The notes: a model not told the origin generated them from the sequence alone. Counted from the first letter of the stretch, positions 13,593-55,498 are shown. The stretch is DNA of 64,000 nucleotides from an uncultured Acidimicrobiia bacterium (GCA_965530755.1 CBESNA010000019.1:2102-66101), one strand, 5' to 3'. Made by a program: numbers and translations.

Positions 13593-14279
13593 ATGAGTTC
13601 GAGGTTGGCACGATACGGAGCCTGGCTTGCGTGCTGCTTGAGCCGCGGGCCACGTGCCCCTCTCGGCGAGAGCGATGTCGAGCTGTTGGCGAAGGAGATG
13701 GGGGAGGAGGCCTACGCCGGCGGCACGTTCGTCTTCCGCCAGGGAACAGCAGCGGCGAAGGTTCACGTCTTGCGGTCCGGGACAGTCGAACTGTCGAGAA
13801 CCGTCAAGGGCCGCCGGGTGACCCTCCAGGTTCTTCGGCCCGGCGATGTGTTCGGCGACGTCCCCGTCTTTCTGGGTGAGCCCGAGCCCTTCGATGCGCG
13901 CGCCGTCGAAGACTGCACGGTGCTGTCTCTGAGTGCCGATGAGCTCTACCAGCTGTTGCAGACCCGACCTCTCGTGGCCCGACGGTGGTTCGTCTCACTC
14001 GCCGAGCGCATGGCGGGACTCCAGAACCGCCTTGTCGACCTGCTCGCGGGAGGCATCGAGGCCCAACTCGCGTCGATCCTGCTCCGAGAGGCAGATAGCA
14101 ACGGCAGCGTCCACATAACCCAGAACAGCCTCGCCGGGATGCTGGGTGTTCAGCGCTCCAGCGTGCAACGTGTTCTGAAGCTGCTCGAGGCCGCCGGACT
14201 CATCGAGTTGCACTATCGCTGCATCGACCTCATCGACCAGGGTGGTCTGGTCTCGTTGCTCGAGGAACCTGACACCTAG
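13593..14279 (+). CDS. Crp/Fnr family transcriptional regulator
   Basis: A cNMP-binding-like segment (FRQGTAAAKVHVLRSGTVELS..GDVFGD) and a C-terminal HTH (SLAGMLGVQRSSVQRVLKLLEAAGLI) are present. The start is uncertain, lying between 13512 and 13593. Confidence 0.8.
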   Translation: MSSRLARYGAWLACCLSRGPRAPLGESDVELLAKEMGEEAYAGGTFVFRQGTAAAKVHVLRSGTVELSRTVKGRRVTLQVLRPGDVFGDVPVFLGEPEPFDARAVEDCTVLSLSADELYQLLQTRPLVARRWFVSLAERMAGLQNRLVDLLAGGIEAQLASILLREADSNGSVHITQNSLAGMLGVQRSSVQRVLKLLEAAGLIELHYRCIDLIDQGGLVSLLEEPDT

Positions 14280-14330
14280 ACCAGCAAGGCGGCCGGGCGG
14301 GGCTACCAGTGGCTGGCAACCGCACTGGTT

Positions 14331-14456
14331 GTGACGATCGCTGAGATCGCGTTCTTCGCCGGGTACCCCATCGTCAGCTACCTGCTCGATGCAGCAGCCG
14401 TCGTCCTCTTCTTCGGCAACCGCCGGGCGCGTGAACGCGTCGGCTCCGTCAGCTGA
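14331..14456 (+). CDS. Possible small hydrophobic protein, or an in-frame extension of the Crp ORF
   Basis: The frame stays open from the Crp TAG at 14277-14279 through to the TGA at 14454. It encodes ..YQWLATALVVTIAEIAFFAGYPIVSYLLDAAAVVLFFGNRRARERVGSVS. By hand count, codon third positions are about 85% G/C. No ATG is present; GTG at 14331 is the nearest conventional start. Confidence 0.3.
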   Translation: MTIAEIAFFAGYPIVSYLLDAAAVVLFFGNRRARERVGSVS

Positions 14457-14615
14457 GGCGACTGCAGGTGGACGGGCTCGACGTGTTCGCATGGCGGCGT
14501 CGCTGGTGTTCGTCGCGTTGGCCAGATGACCTGACGACGATGGTCGCGGTATTCGCCGCCGGGCACGAGGCCGGACACCACGATCCGCGATAGCAGCGGA
14601 TGTTAGAGTCCGCCG

Positions 14616-16184
14616 ATGTCGACGACTCCCGATCCGGTGATCCAAACACCCGCGACGGTGCAGATTCGCAGGCGGCTCGAGAAGCGGGTGGCTTTCAGCC
14701 TCTCCATGTTGGCTCGGCCAATGCGCACCTATCGCATGCTCCGCGACGAGAGCTTGGTCATTGCGTTCCCGAATTATCGCCGGCACGCGCAGCGCGTGGT
14801 CCGGCAGACCGTTGTCGGCCTCGTCTCGTTGGGGGGCCTGCTGATCTATGGGATCGTCTCTTCGACAATGTGGCTGACTGCGCTGGCGCTGGCGGCGCTG
14901 ACATCGGTGGTCGCCGCCGTCGTGTGGAACCGCTGGCACAGTGGGTCGACGGCACTCGTGCGGCGCGGATTGCCACCGGGCGAACTCACCGGCTTGGCGT
15001 GCCCGTTGCTCGATGTTGACCACCACCAGAGGCTCTTCGACGAACACGGCCCCACATTCACGACGAATCACCTCCACACACCGCTCGTCGCCGTGTACGG
15101 CCTCGAGAGAGGGCAGGGTGTGTTGCGTGAATGTCAGGCCGACCTCAGCCCGATGCCCCGTCCTGACAACTTCCTGGTCGAGGGCGGTTTCGTGAGGGTG
15201 CTCGAAGGCGACGACCATCGTCGGATGCGCGCCTCGCTTGCTCCTCTCTTCGCCGCCGGCGTTCTCGAACGACTCCGTCCCCGTGTCGAGGTGAGCGTCG
15301 ACGCGAGCCTGGCTGATTGGGATAGCGGCGGATCGCTGCTGCACCCCCGTCCGCTCGTAGAGCACCTCGTGCTGGACATGTGGCTGACGCTGTTCTTCGG
15401 ACCCAGCGAGCGCTACGAACCCGAGCGGCTGGCCCGGCTGGCAGACCTCTACCGCCAGATCGATCACCTGACTCCGACGCCGGAAATGCGCGACGTGCAG
15501 GACCAAATCGTCGAGGAGGTCCAGGCGCTCGGGCGCCTCCCTGACCTACCGAACTGTTTGTTGCGCGAACTCACGGCACGGTCTCCGGAGAGCCTCGACG
15601 ACCTCCCTCTGGTCGAGAACCTGGTGCATCTCGTCACATCGTCGCACGCCGACATGTCTGGGCTCTTCGATTGGATCGTGAAGTTCCTCGCCGACAACCC
15701 GAAGTGGATCGATCGTCTCCGTGGTTCAGCTCCCGAGCAGACAAAGATCAACGCCGACGCCTTCGTCTCCGAATCGCTCCGGCTCGCCCAGAGCGAAGTG
15801 TTGTTGCGCGTCACGAACCGGCCGACCAACGTTGAGGGCCACACCATCCCGCGCCGGTGGATGATTCGTGTGCTCGTGCGGGAGAGTCATCGCGACCCCG
15901 CAGCGTTCGAAGATCCGCTCGAATTTCGGCCGGAACGATTCGTATCGGAGAGCTACGGGCGCCTCGAGTACTCGCCGTTCGGGCTCGACGGGCGGTCGTG
16001 CATCGCCGAGAGCCTGGCGAGGATGGCGAGCGAGGTCTTCGTGACCGGCCTGGCGAGGCGATTCGATGTCGAAACAGTCGAGGACGGGCCGCTTCAACTC
16101 AGCATTCACCGTCACGCCGCGCCGAACCACCATTGGAAGGTCAGGCTCAGCCCAGCGCCGGTGGCTCGAGCCGGCACCGCGTAG
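14616..16184 (+). CDS. Cytochrome P450 with an N-terminal two-helix membrane anchor
   Basis: P450 motifs are present: ExxR (ESLR), PERF, and the Cys-ligand loop FGLDGRSCIAESLA. The N-terminal ~110 aa contain two hydrophobic helices (VVGLVSLGGLLIYGIVSS, WLTALALAALTSVVAAVVW). Confidence 0.9.
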   Translation: MSTTPDPVIQTPATVQIRRRLEKRVAFSLSMLARPMRTYRMLRDESLVIAFPNYRRHAQRVVRQTVVGLVSLGGLLIYGIVSSTMWLTALALAALTSVVAAVVWNRWHSGSTALVRRGLPPGELTGLACPLLDVDHHQRLFDEHGPTFTTNHLHTPLVAVYGLERGQGVLRECQADLSPMPRPDNFLVEGGFVRVLEGDDHRRMRASLAPLFAAGVLERLRPRVEVSVDASLADWDSGGSLLHPRPLVEHLVLDMWLTLFFGPSERYEPERLARLADLYRQIDHLTPTPEMRDVQDQIVEEVQALGRLPDLPNCLLRELTARSPESLDDLPLVENLVHLVTSSHADMSGLFDWIVKFLADNPKWIDRLRGSAPEQTKINADAFVSESLRLAQSEVLLRVTNRPTNVEGHTIPRRWMIRVLVRESHRDPAAFEDPLEFRPERFVSESYGRLEYSPFGLDGRSCIAESLARMASEVFVTGLARRFDVETVEDGPLQLSIHRHAAPNHHWKVRLSPAPVARAGTA

Positions 16185-16195
16185 CCCATCGACCG

Positions 16196-16645
16196 ATGCA
16201 GCGTGTTTGGGTGCGTGTCGCCGACCTTCGGATGCTTGCCGCCGCTGTTCCCGTGTCCATTTCTGTCCGGCGGGCGCTCCGCTCGCACCAAGACCTCTCT
16301 GCACTGCTCGCCTCCGTCGAGGCCGTGGCCTCAGCCCATCAGCCTCGCCGGTTTTGGGGCGCCCCGGCTCGTGTCCCGATCGTCGCGGGTTGGTGCTTTC
16401 GTTTCACCGACCGGTCGTGTGTCGGGCGGTCGCTCACGGCGTTCGCACTACTACGTCGCCAGGGAGCGTCACCCAGTTTCGTCAGCGGCGTCGTCGCCCT
16501 CGACCGCAGGGATACCAAGACGTTCCTCGACGGTCACGCGTGGGTCGAACTCGATGGTTCGCCGCTCGCGGACGCGGATCTCGCGGTGGCAAAGCGATAT
16601 CGCGAGATCTACCGCCATCCGCCGTCAGCTACGAGAGAGCGCTGA
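16196..16645 (+). CDS. Lasso-peptide-type B2 leader peptidase (transglutaminase-like cysteine protease)
   Basis: 149 aa, starting at an ATG 11 nt after the P450 stop. The sequence DRSCVGRSLTAFALLRRQGASPSFVSGV......LDGHAWVELDGSPL matches the Cys...His(AHAWVE-type)...Asp layout of PF13471 B2 proteins. Confidence 0.8.
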   Translation: MQRVWVRVADLRMLAAAVPVSISVRRALRSHQDLSALLASVEAVASAHQPRRFWGAPARVPIVAGWCFRFTDRSCVGRSLTAFALLRRQGASPSFVSGVVALDRRDTKTFLDGHAWVELDGSPLADADLAVAKRYREIYRHPPSATRER

Positions 16646-16780
16646 CTACGTGAGGCCGCTGCCGATCGACCCGGTGAGGGTGCTCCAGCCTGGATGTTCG
16701 GTGAGTGCCGGGGGCTCGTAGACCTCACGCTCGGTGGCCGCAGCCGTGGGGTCAGCGTCGCAATTCTCGTCTGGGTCCAT
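16646..16780 (-). CDS. Candidate RiPP precursor peptide, 44 aa (MDPDENCDADPTAAATEREVYEPPALTEHPGWSTLTGSIGSGLT)
   Basis: Hand-translated from the minus strand, since it is below the ORF-track size cut-off. ATG is at 16780 and TAG at 16648-16646. It lies 101 nt downstream of the RRE-fusion gene on the same strand. The motif Y21-x2-P24-x-L26-x9-T36-G37 reproduces the lasso leader positions Y-17/P-14/L-12/T-2 exactly. GC3 is about 80% by hand count. No strong SD is seen. Confidence 0.6.
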   Translation of the reverse strand: MDPDENCDADPTAAATEREVYEPPALTEHPGWSTLTGSIGSGLT

Positions 16781-16881
16781 TCGGTCAGGGTACTCAACGG
16801 GCTCGGTTGGCGCCAGCAAAGGACACCGTTGGCCATGTCGGAGGAAGGGTCCGCGACGATCTCGATGGGGTCGCAGCGGCC

Positions 16882-17562
16882 TCAGCCATCCGGCACGACC
16901 AGGCCAGCATCGGCGAGTTGGGCGACCAGGAGTGCCACGTCACGTCGAGCGGCCTCCTCGTCGACCGCAAATGTGGCGATGACGCGCTCGACGGCTGTCT
17001 CGATTCCTTCGTCGATCGACTCCCAGACCACCCTTCCGGCCGGGTTGAGATCGAAAATTCTCTGTGTGCGAGGATCGAGGAGCACCGAGCTTGGGTCGAG
17101 GTCGGTGTACCTGACCGCAGGATCTCGGCGCCAAGAGTGCGTCCGGCCCGGATAGGCGGCACCGTCATCTTGATTGGTGGCTGCGGCTGAGGCGTGCCGG
17201 TGCAACCAGAGCCAACGCTCATCGAGCCTGTGCAGACTCACTGTCCATCGGATCGGGACCGTCAGGGGATTGCCGTTCACGGAGAGATGGATGGTCAGCG
17301 ACGCTGCCACCGTTGCGGCATCACCGCGTCGGGTGAGGTGCCGCCAGTGCCACTCGAATCGTTCAGCGGTCGCCTCGGAGAAGTTCCGTTCGAACAGGCT
17401 CCGGATCTCGGCTCGGCCGGTGCACAACTCGTCGGCACCCGTGCCGATCAGCGAGATGTCATCACCCCCGTCGAACAACTCCATCAGCCCGTCGATGTCT
17501 TTCGCACAGTACGCGTCTGCGTAGACATCGAAGGTGGCGAGTATTTCAGTCTCTTCACTCAC
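16882..17562 (-). CDS. NTF2/SnoaL-like domain fused to a PqqD-family RiPP recognition element (lasso B1-like)
   Basis: The C-terminus LLDPRTQRIFDLNPAGRVVWESIDEG..ATFAVDEEAARRDVALLVAQLADAGLV matches the PqqD/RRE pattern. The N-terminal ~130 aa look like a DUF4440/SnoaL fold (FDVYADAYCAKDIDGLMELF...WLWLHRH). GTG at 17562 has a GGAG 7 nt upstream. The longest ORF starts at GTG 17610. Confidence 0.75.
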   Translation of the reverse strand: MSEETEILATFDVYADAYCAKDIDGLMELFDGGDDISLIGTGADELCTGRAEIRSLFERNFSEATAERFEWHWRHLTRRGDAATVAASLTIHLSVNGNPLTVPIRWTVSLHRLDERWLWLHRHASAAATNQDDGAAYPGRTHSWRRDPAVRYTDLDPSSVLLDPRTQRIFDLNPAGRVVWESIDEGIETAVERVIATFAVDEEAARRDVALLVAQLADAGLVVPDG

Positions 17563-17678
17563 CGAACAGCTCCATCTCTGACAGTCATGCTCAGGAGTTC
17601 CGAATATCACGCGGCGCTGCGTTCCGGATCACGGACCGAGAGAGTGATCTCGAGGCGGCCGGTGATCGGAGGCAACAG

Positions 17679-19580
17679 TCAGCTTCCGTCGACCATGTCG
17701 ACGAGCCCGAGACCAGCTCGTACTCGCTCGATTCGATAGTGCGCATCGGGCCCGTTCAGGAAGTTCGGGCGAAGTGGTGGTGTGTGGAGAATCTCGCGCC
17801 GTTGGAGCTCCTCGATCACTGCTGTGTGTTCTGGCGCAATCTTGCCGACGAGGAGGGTGTCCAGCCGTCCGCCTTTGTGGACGTAGTCAACGACGCCCTG
17901 AAGCCCACGCAGGTAGACGGCATCCTTCACCAAGCCGCCGCCTCGGTGCACCCGCATGGCCACCCCGAATGCACTTTTGCTCGCCATGCCGATGTCATCG
18001 ACGAGCAGTCGGTAGGTGTCGATGAATTCTGCGCCGTCTGCGACCGACCGCGCAGCGATGACCCGAGCGGCCAACGTCCGAAGTCTCGCCGGGGTGAGAC
18101 CGCCAACGATGTACTCGGCGAACACGGCCAAGCCCTCCTGGAGCTCATCGTGGCGCGCCAACCCGGAAGCGAGCAAGCGGAATGGTTGGGCTCGGCCGTT
18201 CCAGTACGTGACGACGTGTGTCCCGACCTCGTGCTGTATGAGTGCCTCGACGCGGTCCGCAGGTATCGACATGGATTTCCCCACCAGGAGATTGCCTGCC
18301 GAGACCATCAGGGACGTCACGTCGTCGCGCAACTCCACGCGGGGCGTGATCGAGCTGTCGACGGAGCGGTAGGTGGCGATTTCGACTTCGGCTGCTGCGG
18401 CGAAGGCTTCGCCCGAGATGCGCCTCCCCGAAGTGGTTGCCTTCTCCCGGTCCATCGACTCCAGAACCGATCGTGCCAGCTCGATTGACGCGTCGTCGAC
18501 CCTCCCGTAGAGAGCAACGCTCGTCGGGAGGAATCGCGGGGTCAGCCTGGCTCCGATGAGCGAGAGTTTGAGCTCCAACTCCACCCGCTTCTCGCGAAAC
18601 AGTGCTTCGAGAGTCGGGTCCTCGACGCGTTCGATCTTGATGTTGAAGAGCTTCCGCTTCAGTATCGATGGATCGACCGTGTGCGGGCGATATTGGAAGC
18701 GTGGGGCCTTGTTGAACTTCGAGGCTCGAAAGCTCCGAAACGCGGCATCAGAGTTGACTGGCGTCACCGTCAGCAGCAGATCGAACGACTCGGCGACACT
18801 CGCGAGCTCACGATCGATGTCGCGTACAGCGCGAACCACGGCGCGGCGGCCCAGCGCTTGGTAATGCAACGGATGCGACGACGTCTCCTCTCGAGCGAAA
18901 ACGAACGCCGCCTGCGCAAGCGAGCGGGCCACCTGGTGGATCATCGCTCGCTTCACCAGTGGGTAGCTTTCGCCCGTCGTCGAGGATTCCCATGCCGGAT
19001 AGGTCATCAAGCCGACGGCGTGGGTGTTCGTGGCTTTAGCCGCCGCCGGGGACAGAAGGCGCCGGACGTGCGGGGGCGCCAGCGGTACCGATGGACTCAG
19101 CCTCACTTCGGCCTTCTGGCCAAGAATCCTCACGCGAGCGAGTTCCTTGGCCAACGCCGTGACTGCCGGTGTGTCGACGAGTTGTTTCGGTATGGCGATT
19201 TCGAAGTCCGGCGTGATGTCCGCGGAGACCGAACTGGCTTCCTCGACCTCATTCTTCAGCCAGACCTCCACGAGGAGGAAGCCGCCAAACGATTTGGACT
19301 GGAGGGTTGCCACCCGCTCGACAAGATCAAGGACAAACTTCTGTGCAGACGGGGCCGATGGCGCAATGATGTACGCGGCCTGGCTCGCCACGAGTGATTT
19401 CAGGGCGGCGTCGGCGGCCCCGGGCGGAGGTCGATAGACAACCAGAAACGGGAGCAACCGGTCGATGTGCACACGACCGTCTGAGGCCAAGTTTCGTCTG
19501 ACACGCTCACCCTTCTCGACGCGAGCTGCGATCTCGTCGAGCAGCGCTGGGCTGAGCTTGGTCGTTCGTTTTGCTGCCAT
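17679..19580 (-). CDS. DUF1704 'QEGLA-motif' metallopeptidase (MATCAP-like tyrosine/phenylalanine carboxypeptidase family)
   Basis: HEVGTH (an HExxH motif) is followed by DELQEGLAVFAEY. The large size is typical of TIGR02421-type proteins. An ATG lies at 19580; the longest ORF starts at GTG 19628. Confidence 0.8.
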   Translation of the reverse strand: MAAKRTTKLSPALLDEIAARVEKGERVRRNLASDGRVHIDRLLPFLVVYRPPPGAADAALKSLVASQAAYIIAPSAPSAQKFVLDLVERVATLQSKSFGGFLLVEVWLKNEVEEASSVSADITPDFEIAIPKQLVDTPAVTALAKELARVRILGQKAEVRLSPSVPLAPPHVRRLLSPAAAKATNTHAVGLMTYPAWESSTTGESYPLVKRAMIHQVARSLAQAAFVFAREETSSHPLHYQALGRRAVVRAVRDIDRELASVAESFDLLLTVTPVNSDAAFRSFRASKFNKAPRFQYRPHTVDPSILKRKLFNIKIERVEDPTLEALFREKRVELELKLSLIGARLTPRFLPTSVALYGRVDDASIELARSVLESMDREKATTSGRRISGEAFAAAAEVEIATYRSVDSSITPRVELRDDVTSLMVSAGNLLVGKSMSIPADRVEALIQHEVGTHVVTYWNGRAQPFRLLASGLARHDELQEGLAVFAEYIVGGLTPARLRTLAARVIAARSVADGAEFIDTYRLLVDDIGMASKSAFGVAMRVHRGGGLVKDAVYLRGLQGVVDYVHKGGRLDTLLVGKIAPEHTAVIEELQRREILHTPPLRPNFLNGPDAHYRIERVRAGLGLVDMVDGS

Positions 19581-19730
19581 CACACCCGTGCCTTGGCGGT
19601 TCCGAGATGGAACTGCACCGAAGGACACAAGCTAGCCCTCGCGCCGGACGATCAACCGGACAAGGGCGAACGCTCGGGTACGAGATGGTCTACGATTCCG
19701 CTCCTCACCGCCGATCGCCGCGCCAGCGTC

Positions 19731-20804
19731 ATGTCGGATCGGCAACACCAAGGAGCTGCAGTGCGTATAGGTTTCGTCGTGAACGACATCAAGACCGAGG
19801 AGGCCGGTTACACCACGACCCGCCTCGGTGTAGCTGCCACGAACCGGGGACACGAGGCCTGGACGATCAGCGTCGGTGACCTTGCCTACGATCCAGACGA
19901 ATTGATCAAGGCCAAGGCCACCCGGCCGCCGAAGTCACGGTACAAAGACGGCGTTGGGTACCTCCGCGATCTCCACGGCAAGGCGGCCATCAGAGAGCGG
20001 ATCACGGTCGACGAACTCGACGTCCTGTTCCTCCGAAACGTTCCCTCGGACGAGAAGTCCAGCCGCGAATGGGCCAAGACAGCCGCCATCGACTTCGGCC
20101 GAGTCGCGATGCGCCACGGCGTCATCGTTCTCAACGATCCGAACGGTTTGGCCAAGGCCGCGAACAAGATGTACTTCCAGCTGTTTCCCGAAGAGGTCAG
20201 GCCAAGGACCCTCATTTCTCGCGATCGGCAAGAGATTCGGGATTTCGTTCATGAGGAAGGAAGGGCCGTCCTCAAACCGCTGAGTGGATCGGGAGGCGAA
20301 AACGTCTTCCTGGTTCGCGCCGACGATCCGGCCAACCTGAATCAGATGATCGATGCCGTCAATCGGGACGGCTACATCATTGCGCAGGAGTATCTCGAGA
20401 AGGCCGAGGACGGCGACACCCGTCTGTTCTTGATGAACGGCGAACCTCTTCGTCACAAAGGCCGGTATGCAGCTTTCCGGCGCGTGAGGAAGGGCGGCGA
20501 CATGCGTTCGAATCTCCACGCCGGAGGGTCACTGGCCAAGGCAACGCTCACCGAGGAGTCACTCGAGCTGGCCGAGATCGTTCGCCCGAAACTCGTCCAG
20601 GACGGAATGTTCCTGGTTGGTATCGACATCGTTGGCAACAAGCTCATGGAAATCAACGTGTTCAGCCCCGGCGGGCTGGGTTCTGCGCAGAAGCTCGAAG
20701 GAGTGAACTTCAATGACGCAGTGCTCGACAGCCTGGAGCGCAAGGTGAGCTACATGGGCTACTACAAGCGCAACTTCAACAACCCGGAAATGAACACATT
20801 GTGA
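19731..20804 (+). CDS. Glutathione-synthetase-like ATP-grasp ligase
   Basis: GshB-type ATP-grasp motifs are present: LKPLSGSGGENVF, GDTRLFLMNG, RSNLHAGG, GIDIVGNKLMEINVFSPGG. It is divergent from the DUF1704 gene. Confidence 0.8.
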   Translation: MSDRQHQGAAVRIGFVVNDIKTEEAGYTTTRLGVAATNRGHEAWTISVGDLAYDPDELIKAKATRPPKSRYKDGVGYLRDLHGKAAIRERITVDELDVLFLRNVPSDEKSSREWAKTAAIDFGRVAMRHGVIVLNDPNGLAKAANKMYFQLFPEEVRPRTLISRDRQEIRDFVHEEGRAVLKPLSGSGGENVFLVRADDPANLNQMIDAVNRDGYIIAQEYLEKAEDGDTRLFLMNGEPLRHKGRYAAFRRVRKGGDMRSNLHAGGSLAKATLTEESLELAEIVRPKLVQDGMFLVGIDIVGNKLMEINVFSPGGLGSAQKLEGVNFNDAVLDSLERKVSYMGYYKRNFNNPEMNTL

Positions 20805-21583
20805 CCAGCCCCGAGTGGCGTATCACGCGGGGCGACGACCCCGTGGTTGCAACAGCTATCCATGCCGGACACGAGCTGCGACCTGAGGTCGCTGCCCTGA
20901 TGGCACTGTCTGACGCAGACCAGCTCCGGGAAGAGGACCCCTTCACGGACAACTGGGTGGGGATCGCCAAGAACTCCATCGTCGTCGATCGATCTCGTTT
21001 CGAGCTCGATCTCAACCGACCCCGAGACAAAGCGGTGTACCTCGTTCCCGAGGATGCATGGGGCCTCGACGTATGGAGCTCGCCGCCCCCCGAAGAAGTC
21101 AAACTTCGGTCTCTCGAGATCTACGACCGTTTCTACGAGGAGCTCGGAGCCCTCTGCGACGCATTGGTCGAGACCCATGGTCATGTGCTCGTGCTGGATC
21201 TCCATTCCTACAACCACCGGCGGAGCGGACCGGACGGCCCGGTCGACGACCCTGAGCTCAACCCGGAAATCAACTTGGGGACCGAGTCGATCCATGAGGC
21301 GTGGGGTCCGGTCTTGCGCAGCTTCACCGAGACCCTGAGCGAACTACCATTCTACGACGATTCGATAGATGTACGAGCGAACGTGAAGTTCAAGGGCGGA
21401 CAGATGACACGGTGGGTCAACGAGCGCTACGGCGACCGCGGGCTGTCGATCGCAGTCGAGATGAAGAAGATCTACATCGACGAATGGTCCGGCGTGCTCG
21501 ACGAGAGCATCACCGCCACCATCGGCGGACTCTTGGAGGCAGCAGCGCAATCGGCGCGACAGAGCCTCTCGGAAAAGGCCTGA
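20801..21583 (+). CDS. N-formylglutamate amidohydrolase (FGase) family protein
   Basis: The GTG start overlaps the upstream stop (GTGA). An FGase-like pattern is present (AIHAGHELRPE...EDPFTD...LDLHSYN). Confidence 0.75.
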   Translation: MTSPEWRITRGDDPVVATAIHAGHELRPEVAALMALSDADQLREEDPFTDNWVGIAKNSIVVDRSRFELDLNRPRDKAVYLVPEDAWGLDVWSSPPPEEVKLRSLEIYDRFYEELGALCDALVETHGHVLVLDLHSYNHRRSGPDGPVDDPELNPEINLGTESIHEAWGPVLRSFTETLSELPFYDDSIDVRANVKFKGGQMTRWVNERYGDRGLSIAVEMKKIYIDEWSGVLDESITATIGGLLEAAAQSARQSLSEKA

Positions 21584-47793: not shown

Positions 47794-48951
47794 CTATCGG
47801 CGCCGAGGTGAGGAAATGGACGCGGCAAGGTGATCTGGGACGTTGAATCGAGGCCGCTCGCCGGCCCGATAGTGCACGACGAAGCCCTCGAGGATCCTGA
47901 TGGAGATCCAACGGGCGATACCACGCGCCATGCGGCTGTCTTTCAAATACTTGGACGCCAATCGAGTTTCCACGGCGAAGAGCTTGACGAGCAGCCGCGA
48001 GGATCGAGCATCTCCGACCCCGAGCATGTTCGCCGTTTCGTCACCGATGAACAATCGGGTCATGGCCGATGACACTCCGTGCAGCCGAGAGATGGGAATG
48101 AACGAGTTCACCAACTCGATGAGGCTCGCGGTGAGATGAGTCCCCGCGTCGGACGGCTTCTCATTTCGAGATCGGATGAGTACTTCGAGTTCGTCCATCT
48201 CGGCCCGGTCGAGCGGCAAGAGGTCGGGATCGATGCCGAGGAGACTGCCAACGACGTTCCACAAATGGCAGTAGTCCTCCGCCCCCTGCTCGTCGTATTC
48301 GATGCCGAGTTGGTCGAGAACATGGATCAGCGAGGAACTGAACGACAACATGGCGCCGAGCATGTGCTCCTGATTGATCGGTGCACCCCAGGCGTCGTCC
48401 CACCGGGGCCAGACGTCTGGGTCGCTGGTTTTCGGGACCTTCCCGTGGGGGCTCACGACCATGTGGCGAACGCCGGCGTGCATCAGTCGTACTCGGCGAG
48501 CTGTTTCGTAACCGGCCGCACCGGGCTCGAGACCGGCGGGAGCCGTGACATCAAGAAGGAACTGCGCTGATTCGAGCACCCGTCGCTTGGCGTCGGTCTC
48601 GAGCCGGGCGGTCAAGGCCAGAACCTGTGCTCCATCGTGCGATGCGTAGGCCAGAGGAAGCGAGGAGAGGAACAGACCGAGGCCGAGTTCGACGCCCCAC
48701 TCGGCAAAGAACTGAACACCTCTGTCCAAACGATCGCTATCGGCGAAGTCTGGAAGCTCCGGCCGTCGTGCGAGCCAAGCAGCAACGTGCGGATCCGACG
48801 CGTCGCCAGTGACATGGCTCACGGCCAGAATGGACTTGAACAGTTCGTGCGGATCTCGATCGAGGTATTCATCGGCGAGGGCGTCAGCCTCGGGGTCCGA
48901 GCGTTGTCGAAGTTTGTCCAGTAGCGCTGCATCGATCGTCTGCACGTTCAT
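47794..48951 (-). CDS. MpaB/DUF2236 family oxygenase
   Basis: 385 aa with a DUF2236-like pattern (..GLFLSSLPLAYAS..GAQVL..T..L......RRV.E..QF..DV). The SD is GGGAGGA. Confidence 0.6.
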   Translation of the reverse strand: MNVQTIDAALLDKLRQRSDPEADALADEYLDRDPHELFKSILAVSHVTGDASDPHVAAWLARRPELPDFADSDRLDRGVQFFAEWGVELGLGLFLSSLPLAYASHDGAQVLALTARLETDAKRRVLESAQFLLDVTAPAGLEPGAAGYETARRVRLMHAGVRHMVVSPHGKVPKTSDPDVWPRWDDAWGAPINQEHMLGAMLSFSSSLIHVLDQLGIEYDEQGAEDYCHLWNVVGSLLGIDPDLLPLDRAEMDELEVLIRSRNEKPSDAGTHLTASLIELVNSFIPISRLHGVSSAMTRLFIGDETANMLGVGDARSSRLLVKLFAVETRLASKYLKDSRMARGIARWISIRILEGFVVHYRAGERPRFNVPDHLAASISSPRRR

Positions 48952-49072
48952 CCTCCCGGCGCCCTCCTACCGACAGATTGATATCAGCTACGGTGGCGCG
49001 ACTCCAGCGAGTGGGGTCGGCACGATCACGAGGGAGGGGGAACGAAGGTTGACCGTTGACGCGTGGAGCGAC

Positions 49073-52000
49073 ATGGCAACCGTGCTCCCAACCGGCGTTC
49101 TGACGTTCCTGTTCACCGATGTCGTCGATTCGACGGCCATGTGGGAGAAGGCGCCCGATCTCATGGAGGCCGCCCTCGCGCGCCATGACGCGATCATCGA
49201 GAAGGCCGTGCTCGACCATGGCGGTCTCTTGCTCAAGCACAAGGGAGAAGGGGACAGCACGTTTTGCGTGTTCGTCTCGGCTGCGGATGCTGTGGCGGGG
49301 GCGGTCTCTGCCCGACGAGCCCTGACGCAGGAACCGTGGCACGAGCGTGCCCGCATCACAGTCCGGATGGGCCTGCACAGCGGAGAATCCATTCTGCGAG
49401 GGCGAGATTATTTCGGACGCACCATCAACCGGGCTGCCCGGGTTCGCGCTGTTGCCGTCGGAGATCAGATCGTTCTGAGCGGGGCGGCAGCGCTTCTCGC
49501 CGGATCGGGCCTTCCAGAAAGCGTGGACGTACGGTTTCTCCGCCGGGCTGTCCTGAAGGGTATTGACGGGGCCGAGGAGATCTACGAACTGGTGGATGCG
49601 CAGGTCCAGACTCCTGCCGACGACGAGGTGACCAGTCAGGTACCGCTTCCGAGTGTCTTGAGTACCGCAGTTCCCGCAGTGTTCGTCGGCAGGAGCGATC
49701 ACCTCGAGCGCATCGAACAGGCCCGCCGCCGCGCCGATGGGGGAGCCCAGCTCGTCTTGCTCGGCGGTGAACCAGGGGCCGGCAAGTCGACGCTGGCGGC
49801 AATCGCCGCGCGCTCCGCTCACGACGCCGGGTACACCGTGCTGTTCGGATCGTGCTCCGAGCGGACGGAAACCTTGTTCGAACCGTTCCGGCACATGCTC
49901 GAGCACTACGTGCGAGCAGCACCTCGTGATCTGCTGGCAGATCACGTCTCAGCCCACGGTGGCGAGGTCGGGCGTCTCACCTCGGCGTTGCGGACCCGGA
50001 TGGGTGACATCTCGCCGGTCGAACAGCTCGACCCCGAGACCACGCGCTCGCTGCTGGAGGACGCGATCATCGACCTTCTCGAACGTGTTGCCTCCTGCGG
50101 GCCGCTCATGTTGGTGTTCGACGATCTGCAATGGGCTGACGCAACGAGCTTGGCGCTGCTCAGCCGACTGAATGGGACGGGCGCGAGCATGACCGTGGTC
50201 TGCACCTATCGATCTGCCGAGGCACCTCATCTCGCCGCACTGCGATCGGGCCGATCACTGAACGGGACCACCGACGATCTTCACGTGACGGGTCTGTCGA
50301 ATGGCGAGGTGCTCGAACTGCTCGAAACGTACGCCGGGCGAGGTCTCGGGCAGACAGGCATCGAGGTCGCTGCCTATTTGTCTGAACAGACGGGCGGCAA
50401 CCCGTTCTTTCTCGCGCAGCTCCTCCGCCATTTCGTCGAGACCGGCCTGCTCACATCCGATAGCGAGGCTGGTTGGGTGATCGGCAAGGACCTCCAGGAC
50501 GTCTCGACCCCTGGCACGGTGACTGCCGTGGTCGGCCAGCGACTCGAGCGGCTCGGCACGGAGGCGGCAAGAATTCTGGAAGTTGCTTCAGTGGTGGGTC
50601 AGCGTTTCGACTCGCGGTTGGTGGCGCACGTCCTGACGGCAGACGAACTCGATGTGGTCGATGCCATCGAAGCAGCGATCACCGCGTCCCTCGTCCGCGA
50701 GATCGACGTCGACACCTTCGAGTTCTCGCACGCCCTCGTTCGTGATTCGCTGTACGACGGACTCGGCCATACGCGTCGAGCCCTCCGGCACGAGCAATGC
50801 GGGCGGGCCATGGAGGAACTCTACGGAAAGGCAGTATCGGCTTCGGGTGTGGCATCGCACTGCCTGCGATCGAACTCCCGCGACAACGATCGCCTCGTTC
50901 GATGGGCTCGCCTGGCGGGTCGGAATGCCCTCGATGATCTGTCTCCTGAGGATGCACTCCAGTGGTTCGGTCATGCGCTCGAAGCTCTCGATTCAGATCG
51001 ATCCGCGGAGCGCCTCGAGCTCCTGATCGACATCGCGCCCGCCCAGCGTTGGGTCGACAGTGATGTGTTCCGAACCACGATGCTCGAGGCCGGAGAGCTC
51101 GCCGAACAGCTTGCTGACGAGGCGGCCTTCGTTCGAGTCGTGCTGGCAAACAACCGAGGCGGTGCGAGTCGATCGGGAGCTGTCGACGAGGCTCGTGTTG
51201 CGTCGATTGAAAGAGCGTTGGAGATCGTCGGGTCAGAGGTCTCGCCTGACCGCGCCCGGTTGTTGGGCACGCTGGCCATCGAACTCTCCCAGCGTGACGA
51301 CCCTGACTTGGTCAACGCGATTGCTCTGGAGGCCGTCGAGTGCGCTGAGCAAGCAGATGATGAGGTCGCACTCTTGACGGTCCTGCTCCACACCACCGAG
51401 GCGACCCGCATTCCGGCCACCTTTGACCAGCGAATGGCAGACGGTGAGCGGGTGCTCGACCTGGCGGTCCGCGTCGGTGACCCGCGGCTCCGGGGACTTG
51501 CTGCGGTTCGCGACGTTCGGTTGAAGATCGAGGCGGCAGCCTTCGATGAGGTCGGCCCTTCCATGGCGGTCATCGAAGAGTTCGGCCACCTCGACCCGTA
51601 CGTCGGGCAGAATCTGCTCAGCCTGCGAGCAGTGCTGGCCCACGTCAATGGTGACACCGAAGCCGCTCTCGGACATGCCGCCGCGGCGCGCGAGGCGATG
51701 CGGGGCGAAGTCGATGGGGAGGCGGTCTACATGGCGACCACCTCATTCGTCCTCTGGGACAGAGGCCAACTTGGATCGCTTCTCCCGACGATTGAAGCGA
51801 CCGTCCGCCGCTACCCGGCGGTCACCGGATTCCAGGCGGTGCTGGCCGCTGCGTATTGTGACGTGGACGACTTCGATTCGGCATCACAGATCCTTTCCCA
51901 GTCGACATCGAATGGCTTTGCCGACCATTCGATGAACCCGCTCTGGATGTTGACCATGTCGATGTTCGCCAGCGTGTGTATCGACGTCGGCGACGTGCAA

Positions 52001-52369
52001 GCGGCCACGATGATCTACGACCTGCTCGATCCATTTCGAGGGCGGGCCAACAGCGCGGTTGTGGCCTTCAACGGCCTCGTCAGTGAGAGTTTGGCCGGCC
52101 TCGCTCTCGTCGCCGGGAACCTCCCCCAGGCCGAGCGTGATGCAGTGGAGGCTTTGGCGCAGGCCGAGAAAGTCGGCGCCCCCATCTCCGCTGTGCGAAC
52201 TCGCCTCATCCAGTGCCGGGTTCTGGTCGATCGAGGTGGAGCGGAAGACCTCGACCGGGCGATCGTTCTCGCCCACCGGGTCGCCGAAGACGCGAGCGAG
52301 TTCAGCCTTGCGACGGTGCACCGAAGAGCGGAGGAGCTGATGACCTCGCTGCGAACGGCGGCCTCATGA
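49073..52369 (+). CDS. Class III adenylate/guanylate cyclase domain fused to a STAND-type P-loop ATPase and a helical-repeat region
   Basis: The cyclase domain (LTFLFTDVVDSTAMW..KGEGDSTFCVF..RMGLHSGE) is followed by Walker A GGEPGAGKST, Walker B LMLVFDDLQWAD, and a long helical C-terminus. No HTH is seen. An alternative TTG start lies at 49049. Confidence 0.85.
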   Translation: MATVLPTGVLTFLFTDVVDSTAMWEKAPDLMEAALARHDAIIEKAVLDHGGLLLKHKGEGDSTFCVFVSAADAVAGAVSARRALTQEPWHERARITVRMGLHSGESILRGRDYFGRTINRAARVRAVAVGDQIVLSGAAALLAGSGLPESVDVRFLRRAVLKGIDGAEEIYELVDAQVQTPADDEVTSQVPLPSVLSTAVPAVFVGRSDHLERIEQARRRADGGAQLVLLGGEPGAGKSTLAAIAARSAHDAGYTVLFGSCSERTETLFEPFRHMLEHYVRAAPRDLLADHVSAHGGEVGRLTSALRTRMGDISPVEQLDPETTRSLLEDAIIDLLERVASCGPLMLVFDDLQWADATSLALLSRLNGTGASMTVVCTYRSAEAPHLAALRSGRSLNGTTDDLHVTGLSNGEVLELLETYAGRGLGQTGIEVAAYLSEQTGGNPFFLAQLLRHFVETGLLTSDSEAGWVIGKDLQDVSTPGTVTAVVGQRLERLGTEAARILEVASVVGQRFDSRLVAHVLTADELDVVDAIEAAITASLVREIDVDTFEFSHALVRDSLYDGLGHTRRALRHEQCGRAMEELYGKAVSASGVASHCLRSNSRDNDRLVRWARLAGRNALDDLSPEDALQWFGHALEALDSDRSAERLELLIDIAPAQRWVDSDVFRTTMLEAGELAEQLADEAAFVRVVLANNRGGASRSGAVDEARVASIERALEIVGSEVSPDRARLLGTLAIELSQRDDPDLVNAIALEAVECAEQADDEVALLTVLLHTTEATRIPATFDQRMADGERVLDLAVRVGDPRLRGLAAVRDVRLKIEAAAFDEVGPSMAVIEEFGHLDPYVGQNLLSLRAVLAHVNGDTEAALGHAAAAREAMRGEVDGEAVYMATTSFVLWDRGQLGSLLPTIEATVRRYPAVTGFQAVLAAAYCDVDDFDSASQILSQSTSNGFADHSMNPLWMLTMSMFASVCIDVGDVQAATMIYDLLDPFRGRANSAVVAFNGLVSESLAGLALVAGNLPQAERDAVEALAQAEKVGAPISAVRTRLIQCRVLVDRGGAEDLDRAIVLAHRVAEDASEFSLATVHRRAEELMTSLRTAAS

Positions 52370-52920: not shown

Positions 52921-53426
52921 TGCCGGTGACGCACTTGACCGTGATCACAGCGGTGAAGCCGGGGCGACACGACGAGCTTCGGACTTTACTCGGGTCGATT
53001 CCCACAGGTGCCGCCAGCCCGTTTGCCAGAATTCCCGGCACCCACAATGGGCGGTGGGCGCTGATCGATACGTCAGCGTCACTGACGGCTCCGCTGCGAG
53101 CCGGTGGCCTTGTGGCTCCCATGCTGGTGTGTTCGGCTGCGATCGACTCCACACCAGCGCAATGGCTGTCTGCGCTCCTCGCCGAGGTCGGAGGCCTCGC
53201 CGACGAGATCTGGGGGCATTGTCCCGGTTGGCCGACAACTGACCACGTCGGTCACCTGCTTGCTCATCAGGTCAAGCCACATCTCGGCTTCGCAACGTGG
53301 GACGAGCCCGCAGCGGAGATTCGTCGTGCGCTCGACTGTCGGGGGAAACTGGTCGACTTCGCGGTACGGACGCAAGGTTTGCCCGCGGCCGAACTACTCG
53401 ATGCGTATCGACGGGAGTTCTCGTGA
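52920..53426 (+). CDS. Hypothetical protein (168 aa)
   Basis: The ATG overlaps the upstream TGA by 1 nt. I recognise no domain. It contains GTHNGRWALI. Confidence 0.5.
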   Translation: MPVTHLTVITAVKPGRHDELRTLLGSIPTGAASPFARIPGTHNGRWALIDTSASLTAPLRAGGLVAPMLVCSAAIDSTPAQWLSALLAEVGGLADEIWGHCPGWPTTDHVGHLLAHQVKPHLGFATWDEPAAEIRRALDCRGKLVDFAVRTQGLPAAELLDAYRREFS

Positions 53427-55498
53427 GGAGTGAGGGTCCGAACCCGCGGAACATCCAAGGCGACGTTCTCAAGGCATACGGACTGCGCTTCTCGGCCCAT
53501 GTGTTCGTCAACATCTCTCACAGCAACGGGGGACGGGCGGTCCTGGCTGCAACCCTCACGCAGGTGACGAGTGCTGCAGACTGGTCCAATCGGCCGTCGA
53601 TCACCCTCAACGTCGGCCTGACCGCCACCGGTCTGCAGGCGCTCGGCGCTCCCAACGAGCTGATCGAGTCCTTTCCCGTTGCGTTCAGCGAGGGCATGTC
53701 GGCCCGCGCTCCGTTGCTGGGGGACACGGAGCAATCAGCCCCGTCCACATGGGATGAAGGGCTCGGCACGGGAGCGGCCCACATCCTCTTCACCATCAAC
53801 GCCGCCTCGTCCGGCGAGCTGAACAATGCAGTCGAGCAGCTCGTGGATGTCTGCGCGCTCAACCACGTGGCCGTCGTCAGCGATCAGCGCGGTGCTCGGC
53901 TTCCCGACAGGAAAGAGCATTTCGGCTACACCGATGGCATCGGTCAGCCAGCAGTTGATGGCACAGCCGGGCCGGTCAAGGGCGAGGGTGATCTCACGCT
54001 CCTGCACCAGTGGCGAGGGCTTCCAGTCGGGGAGTTCTTCCATGGGCACACCGACGGTGACGGCCATCAGTCGCCGGGACCGGCACCGCCGTTCGAGCGT
54101 GACGGAACGTTCAAGGTCTGGCGGAAGCTCCACGAGAACGTTCCTGTCTTCCGCCAATGGGTGGCATCGGAGTCAACGCGGCTCGGGTTCGATGATGCGC
54201 ATCTCCGGGCCAAGTTGATCGGCCGATGGCCGGACGGAACTCCCTTGACCCTGAGCCCGGACCGGCCGGATCCGGCGATCGCAGCTGACCCTGGCCGGTT
54301 CAACGCTTTCGACTACACGAACGACCCCCTCGGAGACCGGTGCCCCTTGGGTGCACACATTCGTCGTGTCAATCCTCGTGCCGGACTTGGGTTCGGCGAT
54401 GCGCTGTCCGAGCGACAGAGGATCATCAGACGAGGGATGACGTACGGCCCGGCACTCGCCGAGGGGGCGCCGGCCGATGGTGCGGACCGCGGCATCTTCT
54501 TCGTTGCGTACATGGCCGACATCGAGCGTCAGTACGAATTCATCCAGCGAAACTGGTGCAACAGCGGCGACGTCGTTGGCGTCGGCCGTGACCGTGACCC
54601 CTTCGTCGGTCGGGCTCCAGGCGACCACAAGTTCGTTGTCCCTGGGCCCGTACCGGCAATCGTGCACCCGCTGCCCGAGCTCGTGACGACGAAGGGCGGG
54701 GAGTACCTGTGGGTTCCGTCCTTGCCTTCGCTGGAACGCCTGGCCAACGGACACTACAAGTCCGATCCTGTGATGCCTGCGCTCCCATTGCACGAACGGT
54801 TGGTCGGAGGCGCAGTTGGCCTGATGCTTGCCCCGGCCACTGCGGCTGGGTCCTTGGTTCGCGGCAAACGGATCGTTCATCCCGTCGGCGTCGGGTACGA
54901 AGCAGAACTCGAGATCTTTGATCCACCGCTGCGGTCCCTCGCGGGGACGCAATTGGCAACGCCAGGCCGACTCCCGGCTCGTGTCCGCCTGTCCCGAGCG
55001 TTCGCGTTTCCCGGCCAGCGTCGGGATGTTCGCGGTTTCGCATTGCGGCTGATCGTTGATGGGACCGAAGGCGTCCAAGATCTGCTGTTGGCCACCGTTG
55101 CCCCTGGCCGACTCGGAAACGCAGTGTCGGTCCTGCTCGAGAGCTACGACGGCACATACTCGACCATGGTTCGGCTTCGTGCACCGGCCGGGCCATTGCT
55201 TTTTCACATTCGACCACGACAGGCCTTGCCATCCGATCCGAACATCGAAGCAGGATCAGGCGTCGGGCTCCGATTCGACGTCTCTGCCGGCTCATCGTCA
55301 GATGAGCTCCGGATTCTTGGTGTCCTCACGCTTCTCGCTCCGCTGGCAAATGCGGAAACCGAAGCGCTCTCGTTCTCCCTCGCCAACGACGGCGCTGGGC
55401 TTCGAGCCCACGGAATCCTCAACGTGGCGCGAAAGATCGCCTATCGCTCCAGCCGTCGAGGTCGATCGCTGAGGCAGAGTTCCGCACGCTCGCATTGA
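53423..55498 (+). CDS. DyP-type peroxidase with a ~235-aa C-terminal catalase-like extension
   Basis: The GTG start overlaps the upstream stop (GTGA). The N-terminus NIQGDVLKAYG and the GxxDG motif FGYTDGIGQP are DyP hallmarks. The C-terminal region carries catalase-like strings (RIVHPVGVG, RVRLS, RDVRGFALRL). Confidence 0.8.
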   Translation: MRSEGPNPRNIQGDVLKAYGLRFSAHVFVNISHSNGGRAVLAATLTQVTSAADWSNRPSITLNVGLTATGLQALGAPNELIESFPVAFSEGMSARAPLLGDTEQSAPSTWDEGLGTGAAHILFTINAASSGELNNAVEQLVDVCALNHVAVVSDQRGARLPDRKEHFGYTDGIGQPAVDGTAGPVKGEGDLTLLHQWRGLPVGEFFHGHTDGDGHQSPGPAPPFERDGTFKVWRKLHENVPVFRQWVASESTRLGFDDAHLRAKLIGRWPDGTPLTLSPDRPDPAIAADPGRFNAFDYTNDPLGDRCPLGAHIRRVNPRAGLGFGDALSERQRIIRRGMTYGPALAEGAPADGADRGIFFVAYMADIERQYEFIQRNWCNSGDVVGVGRDRDPFVGRAPGDHKFVVPGPVPAIVHPLPELVTTKGGEYLWVPSLPSLERLANGHYKSDPVMPALPLHERLVGGAVGLMLAPATAAGSLVRGKRIVHPVGVGYEAELEIFDPPLRSLAGTQLATPGRLPARVRLSRAFAFPGQRRDVRGFALRLIVDGTEGVQDLLLATVAPGRLGNAVSVLLESYDGTYSTMVRLRAPAGPLLFHIRPRQALPSDPNIEAGSGVGLRFDVSAGSSSDELRILGVLTLLAPLANAETEALSFSLANDGAGLRAHGILNVARKIAYRSSRRGRSLRQSSARSH

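Follow-up and report, generated by a model that had tools for sequence, protein, structure and literature searches.

The lasso proteins B1 and B2 are considered specific to lasso peptide biosynthesis. In split-B lasso clusters (A, B1, B2, C), such as those of fusilassin with TfuB1 and of TbiB1, a discrete PqqD-type RiPP recognition element (RRE; RiPP, ribosomally synthesised and post-translationally modified peptide) and a B2 Cys protease accompany a precursor whose leader carries the pattern Y-17/P-14/L-12/T-2. Homologues of HPr kinase occur in lasso clusters as well, where they phosphorylate a Ser hydroxyl of the linear precursor (PMC8498205), and about half of the lasso-type discrete RREs stand without a context of cyclase and peptidase (RRE-Finder paper; PMC7470986). 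Here we describe a locus at 14616-17562 of a 64,000-nucleotide stretch of DNA from an uncultured Acidimicrobiia bacterium (GCA_965530755.1 CBESNA010000019.1:2102-66101; the whole stretch is hereafter the window), in which lasso-type leader-processing genes lie beside a cytochrome P450 gene and no lasso cyclase gene is found. With roughly even confidence we read it as a reduced copy of a conserved, Acidimicrobiia-specific, RiPP-like cassette that joins lasso leader parts to P450 oxidation.

The listing of open reading frames (ORFs) and profile searches resolve the locus into four adjacent genes, encoding a P450, a lasso B2 protein, a 44-aa precursor and an NTF2-PqqD/RRE fusion. A first-pass annotation of the window had proposed these same four assignments, with PqqD at the C-terminus of 16882-17562, and the profile searches agree with it at the same boundaries. 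By position and strand the features are:

14616..16184, plus strand: P450, 522 aa (PF00067), with a conserved N-terminal part of ~60 aa, two predicted hydrophobic helices (64-105) and heme Cys462
16196..16645, plus strand: lasso-type B2 leader peptidase (transglutaminase-like Cys protease), 149 aa (PF13471, NF033537)
16646..16669, minus strand: predicted core SIGSGLT and stop codon, the core being conserved across loci
16670..16780, minus strand: leader region of the precursor, MDPDENCDADPTAAATEREVYEPPALTEHPGWSTLTG, with Y-17, P-14, L-12, W-6 and T-2, read directly
16849..16872, minus strand: probable remnant of the 5' end of a kinase gene (DPIEIVAD), matching the kinase N-terminus of the related locus L001
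16882..17142, minus strand: lasso-B1-type PqqD/RRE domain, C-terminal part of the fusion (PF05402)
17143..17562, minus strand: NTF2/SnoaL-like domain, N-terminal part of the fusion (SnoaL_3)

The B2 and PqqD calls both held in the profile searches. B2 matches PF13471 (E=1.7e-12) and passes the cut-off of NCBIfam NF033537, lasso_biosyn_B2 (41.1 bits, cut-off 33), and its Cys/His/Asp residues (DRSC...GHAWVE...D) do not vary among 7 orthologues; a phmmer search of the PDB with B2 gave nothing meaningful. The fusion protein (16882-17562, minus strand, 226 aa) matches SnoaL_3 (E=9.8e-22) and then PqqD PF05402 (E=1.1e-13). Among solved structures its PqqD part comes closest to TfuB1 and TbiB1, both lasso B1 proteins, and the top NCBIfam match is NF033530, lasso_PqqD_Strm (54.5 bits, cut-off 70). 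The gap of 11 nt between P450 and B2 reported at first pass was likewise confirmed, and the two genes are probably translationally coupled.

The precursor gene (16646-16780, minus strand) encodes 44 aa, namely the leader MDPDENCDADPTAAATEREVYEPPALTEHPGWSTLTG followed by SIGSGLT. Its ATG at 16780 agrees with the start in the orthologues, and its stop codon abuts that of B2, the two genes being convergent with zero spacer. Residues Y21, P24, L26 and T36 fall exactly on the lasso leader positions Y-17, P-14, L-12 and T-2, in line with the textbook lasso leader noted for this peptide at first pass. The leader pattern alone is not significant, with 1 match in the six-frame translation of the window and 0.43 expected by chance; we judge the precursor to be more than chance because it is conserved beside the same genes in 10 loci. 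Indeed, the Y-17/P-14/L-12/T-2 spacing is exact in all 10 precursors (window and 9 other loci), which align as ...AYExPxLTEHxEWDxLTG followed by S-[IM]-G-S-G and a tail.

The core S-[IM]-G-S-G with a variable tail is found in nine of the ten loci, L001 having VITS; the ten predicted cores are SIGSGLT, SIGSGLR, SIGSGIT, SIGSGIP, SMGSGSLG, SIGSGM, SIGSGRLP, SIGSGVPPV, SIGSGQVPPKKFQP and VITS, with the hypervariable tails LT, LR, IT, IP, SLG, M, RLP, VPPV and QVPPKKFQP. All ten share Ser4, the residue with which L001 ends. None of the ten contains Asp or Glu, which extends to all ten loci what had been noted for SIGSGLT and leaves no acceptor for a macrolactam at positions 7-9. The conserved SIGSG is also devoid of Trp, Tyr and His: the one aromatic residue in any core, a Phe, belongs to the variable tail in L020, and the conserved His-9 and Trp-6 fall within the predicted leader. 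Without an aromatic or acidic residue in the conserved core, a lariat and an aromatic cross-link are therefore both unlikely.

The P450 family comprises about 15 sequence clusters with 61-85% identity; the next sequences are at 35% and all further ones at 29% or less. Its named records are metagenome-assembled genomes (MAGs) of Acidimicrobiia or Acidimicrobiaceae. Scans of sequence collections with the P450 profile gave 3 genome and 2 metagenome loci, and most gene contexts come from exact-protein look-ups. L001, L003, L004, L015, L017 and L019 each carry the genes for P450, B2, precursor and PqqD together, as do the P0123 and P0126 contigs; L002, L016 and L020 break off before the PqqD position, with the remaining genes in the same order. 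In all loci inspected at the sequence level, the P450 gene lies directly upstream of B2. The precursor gene, which is always on the strand opposite P450 and B2, occupies one of two positions: it follows B2 in the window, L001, L014, L017 and L019, where P450 and B2 are 3-46 nt apart, or it lies, as the only gene, between P450 and B2 (L002-L005, L015, L016, L020).

The flanks vary from locus to locus (toxin-antitoxin, a major facilitator superfamily (MFS) transporter with a cyclic nucleotide (cNMP)-binding domain, PIG-L, amidohydrolase, acetyltransferase), and the cassette itself is therefore the conserved unit. Pairwise ratios of nonsynonymous to synonymous substitution rates (dN/dS), which include pairs of the window with its closest relative, are 0.16-0.32 for P450, 0.21-0.39 for B2 and 0.12-0.30 for PqqD; the window and its closest relative give 0.24. 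The cassette genes are under purifying selection rather than left over from a lasso cluster.

The Asn-synthetase-like profile PF00733 matched none of the 39 window ORFs scanned against Pfam, among them all ORFs of at least 400 aa save three that run antisense to an annotated gene, and the PP-loop signature S[GA]GxDS occurs in none of the six frames of the 64-kb window. Similarly, PF00733 had no match in the called genes up to 10 kb either side of the related loci, where the PP-loop pattern occurs as one chance match in a 155-codon ORF of L002. The cassette thus occurs without a lasso cyclase in the window, as the first-pass annotation had stated, and in every related locus that is readable, and the combination P450-B2-precursor-PqqD noticed there recurs across related Acidimicrobiia. 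It could be argued that this is a true lasso pathway with its cyclase gene in another part of the genome, given that B1, B2 and leader are all lasso-type and that some RiPP enzymes are known to act from trans-encoded genes. Yet Asp and Glu are missing from every predicted core, the conserved core of 5 residues (whole core 4-14) is too short for a 7-9-membered ring and a threaded tail, and neither the window nor any related locus yielded a cyclase, which makes this explanation very improbable. By membership the cassette is not a lasso cluster, cyclase and acceptor residue both being absent. The absence of a cyclase and the conservation of the cassette agree with the earlier proposal that lasso recognition and cleavage parts work on a P450-associated peptide that is not a lasso.

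The inventory of the first-pass annotation was correct for the four genes of the window and missed a fifth gene of the family, which has been deleted here. In all relatives but L017, and in at least 8 related loci, a gene for a protein of 305-335 aa separates PqqD from the precursor or B2. The protein contains a P-loop (Walker A, GPSGRGKTTT), no Pfam family is assigned to it, and it has only 9 close clusters, which are distributed alongside the P450. A full search with a hidden Markov model (HMM) of this family recovered 231 remote representatives. Among 55 remote homologues tested, 47 matched the SynChlorMet protein ScmC, 44 HprK-related kinase A (HprK_rel_A) and 38 HprK-related kinase B, and a few matched HPr kinase or phosphoenolpyruvate (PEP) carboxykinase. 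The hhalign probability of the family profile was 97.7% with a PqqD-adjacent Deinococcus protein and 93% with an annotated HprK-related kinase A. The protein itself reaches no HprK model cut-off, the link to HprK running through the remote homologues and hhalign, and from these similarities we treat it as a kinase-like protein of the HprK/PEPCK fold. An AlphaFold2 model from the 9-sequence alignment was poor (mean predicted local distance difference test, pLDDT, 63.4), and Foldseek of this model against the PDB returned no match at E<=0.001; sequence and profile searches of the PDB returned Walker-A noise only.

No kinase-like gene was found in the window by tblastn (best E=0.14), and the alignment with L001 shows how it was lost. 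The window aligns to L001 by blastn up to 16738 and resumes at 16850, about 1 kb of L001 having no counterpart. Right after the PqqD stop codon, CCCATCGAGATCGTCGCGGA of the window (DPIEIVAD) matches CCCATCAAGATCGTCGCCGA of L001, where the N-terminus of the kinase reads PRPIKIVAE; that of L004, RPIEIVVHD, is comparable. The window lost the kinase-like gene by a deletion of ~1 kb that left a remnant of 8 codons, and 16849-16872 is the probable remnant of its 5' end. In L017, which also has no kinase-like gene, 9 nt separate the PqqD stop from the precursor start, and no remnant is left. In a neighbour-joining tree of the P450, the branches of two kinase-bearing loci, the P0123 contig and L001, fall between those of the window and L017, and the two losses are therefore independent.

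The leader varies with the presence of the kinase-like gene. Positions -7 to -5 are EWD in all kinase-bearing loci (L001, L003, L004, L015, L016, L019, L020), GWS in the kinase-less window (16682-16690) and GWG in the kinase-less L017; L014, which we counted neither as kinase-bearing nor as kinase-less, has RWS. We read this change, in what is a small sample, as a sign of an accessory kinase-like protein that acts on the precursor, and EWD may be its recognition element. The shift from EWD to GW[S/G] (RWS in L014) with loss of the kinase offers a hypothesis for substrate recognition by HprK-like RiPP kinases.

A comparable set of genes is present on a plasmid of Deinococcus psychrotolerans (L021; NZ_CP034185.1, 108-6579), which encodes PqqD, a 297-aa HprK-like protein, a 446-aa fusion of a nucleotidyltransferase (PF14907) with B2, and a 63-aa ORF. 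The leader of the latter, YSSPRLEKAGQWQALTL, followed by a core that starts with Ala, has the same Y-17/P-14/L-12/W-6/T-2 layout, and no asparagine-synthase-like cyclase is annotated up to 20 kb either side. Cyclase-less B1/B2/kinase systems may extend beyond the Acidimicrobiia family.

The P450 matches PF00067 with E=2.9e-28 in the Pfam profile search, and its heme-ligand motif FGLDGRSC (Cys462) and ExxR region are invariant across the aligned family. Kyte-Doolittle peaks in residues 64-105 mark two hydrophobic segments, consistent with a two-helix membrane anchor, so that the membrane anchoring suggested at first pass is reasonable. The top NCBIfam match is the RiPP P450 ApyO, at 95.7 bits against a cut-off of 525, and the closest PDB entries by sequence are taxadiene 5-alpha-hydroxylase, CYP120, CYP3A4, CYP46A1 and BM3, the taxadiene hydroxylase score being equal to that of ApyO. 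The P450 is the sole conserved candidate for a class-defining modification. The initial suggestion of an oxidised or cross-linked peptide survives in part: an aromatic cross-link finds no Trp, Tyr or His in SIGSG, whereas oxidation is retained as the candidate reaction. Hydroxylation or further oxidation is the more plausible of the two because the conserved core is aliphatic or hydroxylic and the P450 is equally near to hydroxylases.

These properties would also suit a P450 whose substrate is a membrane lipid or other small molecule. In that case B1 and B2, together with the kinase in the loci that have it, would yield a short linear peptide, such as a signal, that is unmodified or at most phosphorylated. 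Besides the membrane anchor and the absence of aromatic residues from the core, the hydroxylases of lipophilic substrates that are the closest solved structures to the P450 by sequence would fit this reading, as would the Deinococcus locus, where PqqD, HprK-like protein, B2 and a lasso-type leader peptide occur and no P450 does. However, the constant position of the P450 directly upstream of B2, the narrowness of its family, which equals that of the kinase and precursor families and is distributed with both, and the RiPP P450 as top NCBIfam match all argue for a peptide substrate, and we consider a non-peptide substrate quite unlikely.

The NTF2-RRE fusion, which the first-pass annotation had presented as a component of the system, turned out to be private to the window. 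Among the best 120 of the 289 homologues found with the fusion protein, every one but the window's own protein is a stand-alone NTF2 protein (138-200 aa). The NTF2 part is 74-80% identical to stand-alone proteins of 142 aa, which occupy unrelated contexts, and the PqqD domain is 59-64% identical to the stand-alone PqqD of the relatives (76-89 aa). Stand-alone NTF2 ends in ...AAYPGQAN* and stand-alone PqqD starts with MTQ[ST]WRRDPAV, while the window reads ...AAYPG-R-THSWRRDPAV: the junction is exactly at the former PqqD start codon, ATG having become CGG, and two complete domains are joined in frame. As the fusion protein is on record in 3 contigs, a single mis-assembly is unlikely. An internal start for the RRE was also considered; the sole in-frame candidate, a GTG at 'VLLDP', would cut off the first RRE strand, and the fusion is therefore the likely product. 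The fusion is a lineage-specific capture of a stand-alone gene and not a feature of the family, and nothing suggests a role for the NTF2 domain in the pathway.

Remodelling is not confined to the window. L006, an Acidimicrobiaceae MAG with 85% P450 identity and the closest relative of the window, has a decayed cassette with an intact P450 ORF: at 2260-2560 of L006 B2 is short of ~46 residues, the catalytic Cys among them, and continues into a stub of the PqqD N-terminus that lies in antisense, and the precursor and the remainder of PqqD are gone. The sub-lineage of the window and L006 is undergoing remodelling. Could the window copy itself be a decaying, non-functional relic, in which NTF2 was run in by accident and the intact ORFs are merely not yet disabled? 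The remnant of the deleted kinase gene, a fusion unique to the window protein among those best 120 homologues, and the internal B2 deletion of L006 with its junction to the PqqD stub would all be expected of such decay. Against this, the frames of P450, B2, precursor and RRE are all intact with their catalytic residues retained, a three-taxon estimate puts dN/dS on the window branch at ~0.24, no different from the rest of the family, and the in-frame join has preserved the whole RRE; moreover, L017, which lost its kinase independently, retains the same four genes. We regard the relic explanation as unlikely, the window copy being reduced and possibly impaired.

Returning to a working cassette of lasso leader parts and P450, we infer the following pathway from analogy with characterised lasso systems and from the nature of the core. 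The PqqD/RRE domain would bind the lasso-type leader of the precursor (YxxPxL...T-x), and B2 would cut after T-2/G-1 to release a short linear peptide beginning at Ser1, that is SIGSG with a variable tail (SIGSGLT in the window). The membrane-anchored P450 would oxidise the aliphatic core, most plausibly by hydroxylation rather than by aromatic cross-linking. A lariat would not be formed, because there is neither a cyclase nor an acidic acceptor residue. In loci that have it, the kinase-like protein would be an accessory enzyme that probably phosphorylates a precursor Ser, Ser4 being the invariant one.

Several observations weigh against this pathway. The PqqD score is under the NCBIfam cut-off for lasso B1, and in the window the RRE has no start codon of its own and bears an additional N-terminal domain of 140 aa, which possibly impairs it. 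The P450 is as near to lipid and terpenoid hydroxylases as to ApyO, so that a non-peptide substrate is possible, and with a core free of aromatics its chemistry would be without precedent among characterised RiPP P450s. Finally, the window copy carries two rearrangements and its nearest relative is decayed, so that this copy may be inactive, and all hosts are uncultured.

Full-text literature searches found no description of the combination P450-B2-precursor-PqqD, and it is credible that the cassette family represents an undescribed variant of RiPP biosynthesis. More tentatively, and with somewhat less than even confidence, we propose a new RiPP class in which B1 and B2 are uncoupled from the lariat and feed a membrane P450 acting on a tiny SIGSG core, with an optional HprK-related kinase that reads EWD, within a wider set of cyclase-less B1/B2/kinase systems that includes the Deinococcus plasmid locus. 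If true, a selected family with B1, B2 and a lasso leader and never a cyclase would make these parts a portable leader-processing module, and P450 chemistry would extend to an aliphatic mini-peptide, for which we know of no characterised RiPP precedent.

Some neighbouring genes deserve mention. In one clade an MFS protein fused to a cNMP-binding domain is encoded directly upstream of the P450 and could be an exporter; the window has no homologue. Its coordinates are:

L002, 8237-9898: MFS-cNMP transporter
L003, 28-1689: MFS-cNMP transporter
L004, 863-2524: MFS-cNMP transporter
L016, 472-2133: MFS-cNMP transporter
L020, 632-2293: MFS-cNMP transporter

In the window a Crp/Fnr cNMP-binding regulator is located upstream of the P450 (13512-14279). 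We considered it as a remnant of the transporter and left it out of the cassette because tblastn of the transporter matched nothing in the window. A 503-aa ORF on the minus strand (13995-15506), antisense to the P450 and the intergenic region upstream, is most likely a high-GC artefact, the P450 frame being the conserved and selected one. A scan of 14100-17800 for promoters and terminators gave results no better than chance. Beside the cassette, 17679-21583 encodes a MATCAP/DUF1704-like carboxypeptidase-family protein (649 aa), a glutathione-synthetase-like ATP-grasp protein and an N-formylglutamate amidohydrolase, a trio that looks like a separate small module to ligate or trim amino acids or peptides. 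Farther away, 48809-52369 encodes a protein of 1186 aa in which an AAA_16/STAND NTPase domain comes after an adenylate/guanylate cyclase catalytic domain, and 53297-55498 encodes an unusually long protein (733 aa) with weak N- and C-terminal matches to DyP-type peroxidases and a large C-terminal extension free of assignment. In L004 (6243-6840), a sigma-70 family gene beside PqqD matches its L003 orthologue in three tblastn pieces, which suggests frameshifts or assembly errors in that MAG.

Among described systems, the P450-modified RiPPs (aminopyruvatides with ApyO, biarylitides, cittilins, atropopeptides) share with the cassette a P450 beside a short precursor. Their P450s, however, are soluble and cross-link Tyr, Trp or His, residues that are absent from the conserved core, and lasso B1 and B2 do not occur with them; the cassette is not a member of these aromatic cross-linking systems, and at 95.7 bits against 525 its P450 is outside the ApyO equivalog. 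The HPr-rel-A (TIGR04352/TIGR04353/TIGR04355) and SynChlorMet (TIGR04248/TIGR04249) systems resemble the relatives of the window in combining a PqqD-family chaperone with an HprK-related P-loop protein, but they carry nucleotidyltransferases or radical SAM enzymes and no P450, and the cassette scores far under their equivalog cut-offs. In the phosphorylated lasso peptides of the paeninodin/pseudomycoidin type an HprK-related gene stands with B1, B2 and precursor, as in the relatives of the window (PMC8498205). There the cyclase is retained and the kinase targets a C-terminal Ser, whereas among the cassette loci only L001 ends in Ser, and the kinase-like protein is under every HprK cut-off and absent from the window. 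Closest are the split-B lasso clusters, with which the cassette has the discrete PqqD-type RRE, the B2 Cys protease and the leader in common. It differs from them in having no Asn-synthetase-like cyclase, no Asp/Glu acceptor and a very short core, in an RRE that is fused to NTF2 in the window, and in a predicted membrane-anchored P450 as the sole conserved modifying candidate. The cassette thereby provides a concrete and testable example of the lasso-type discrete RREs that occur without a cyclase (PMC7470986).

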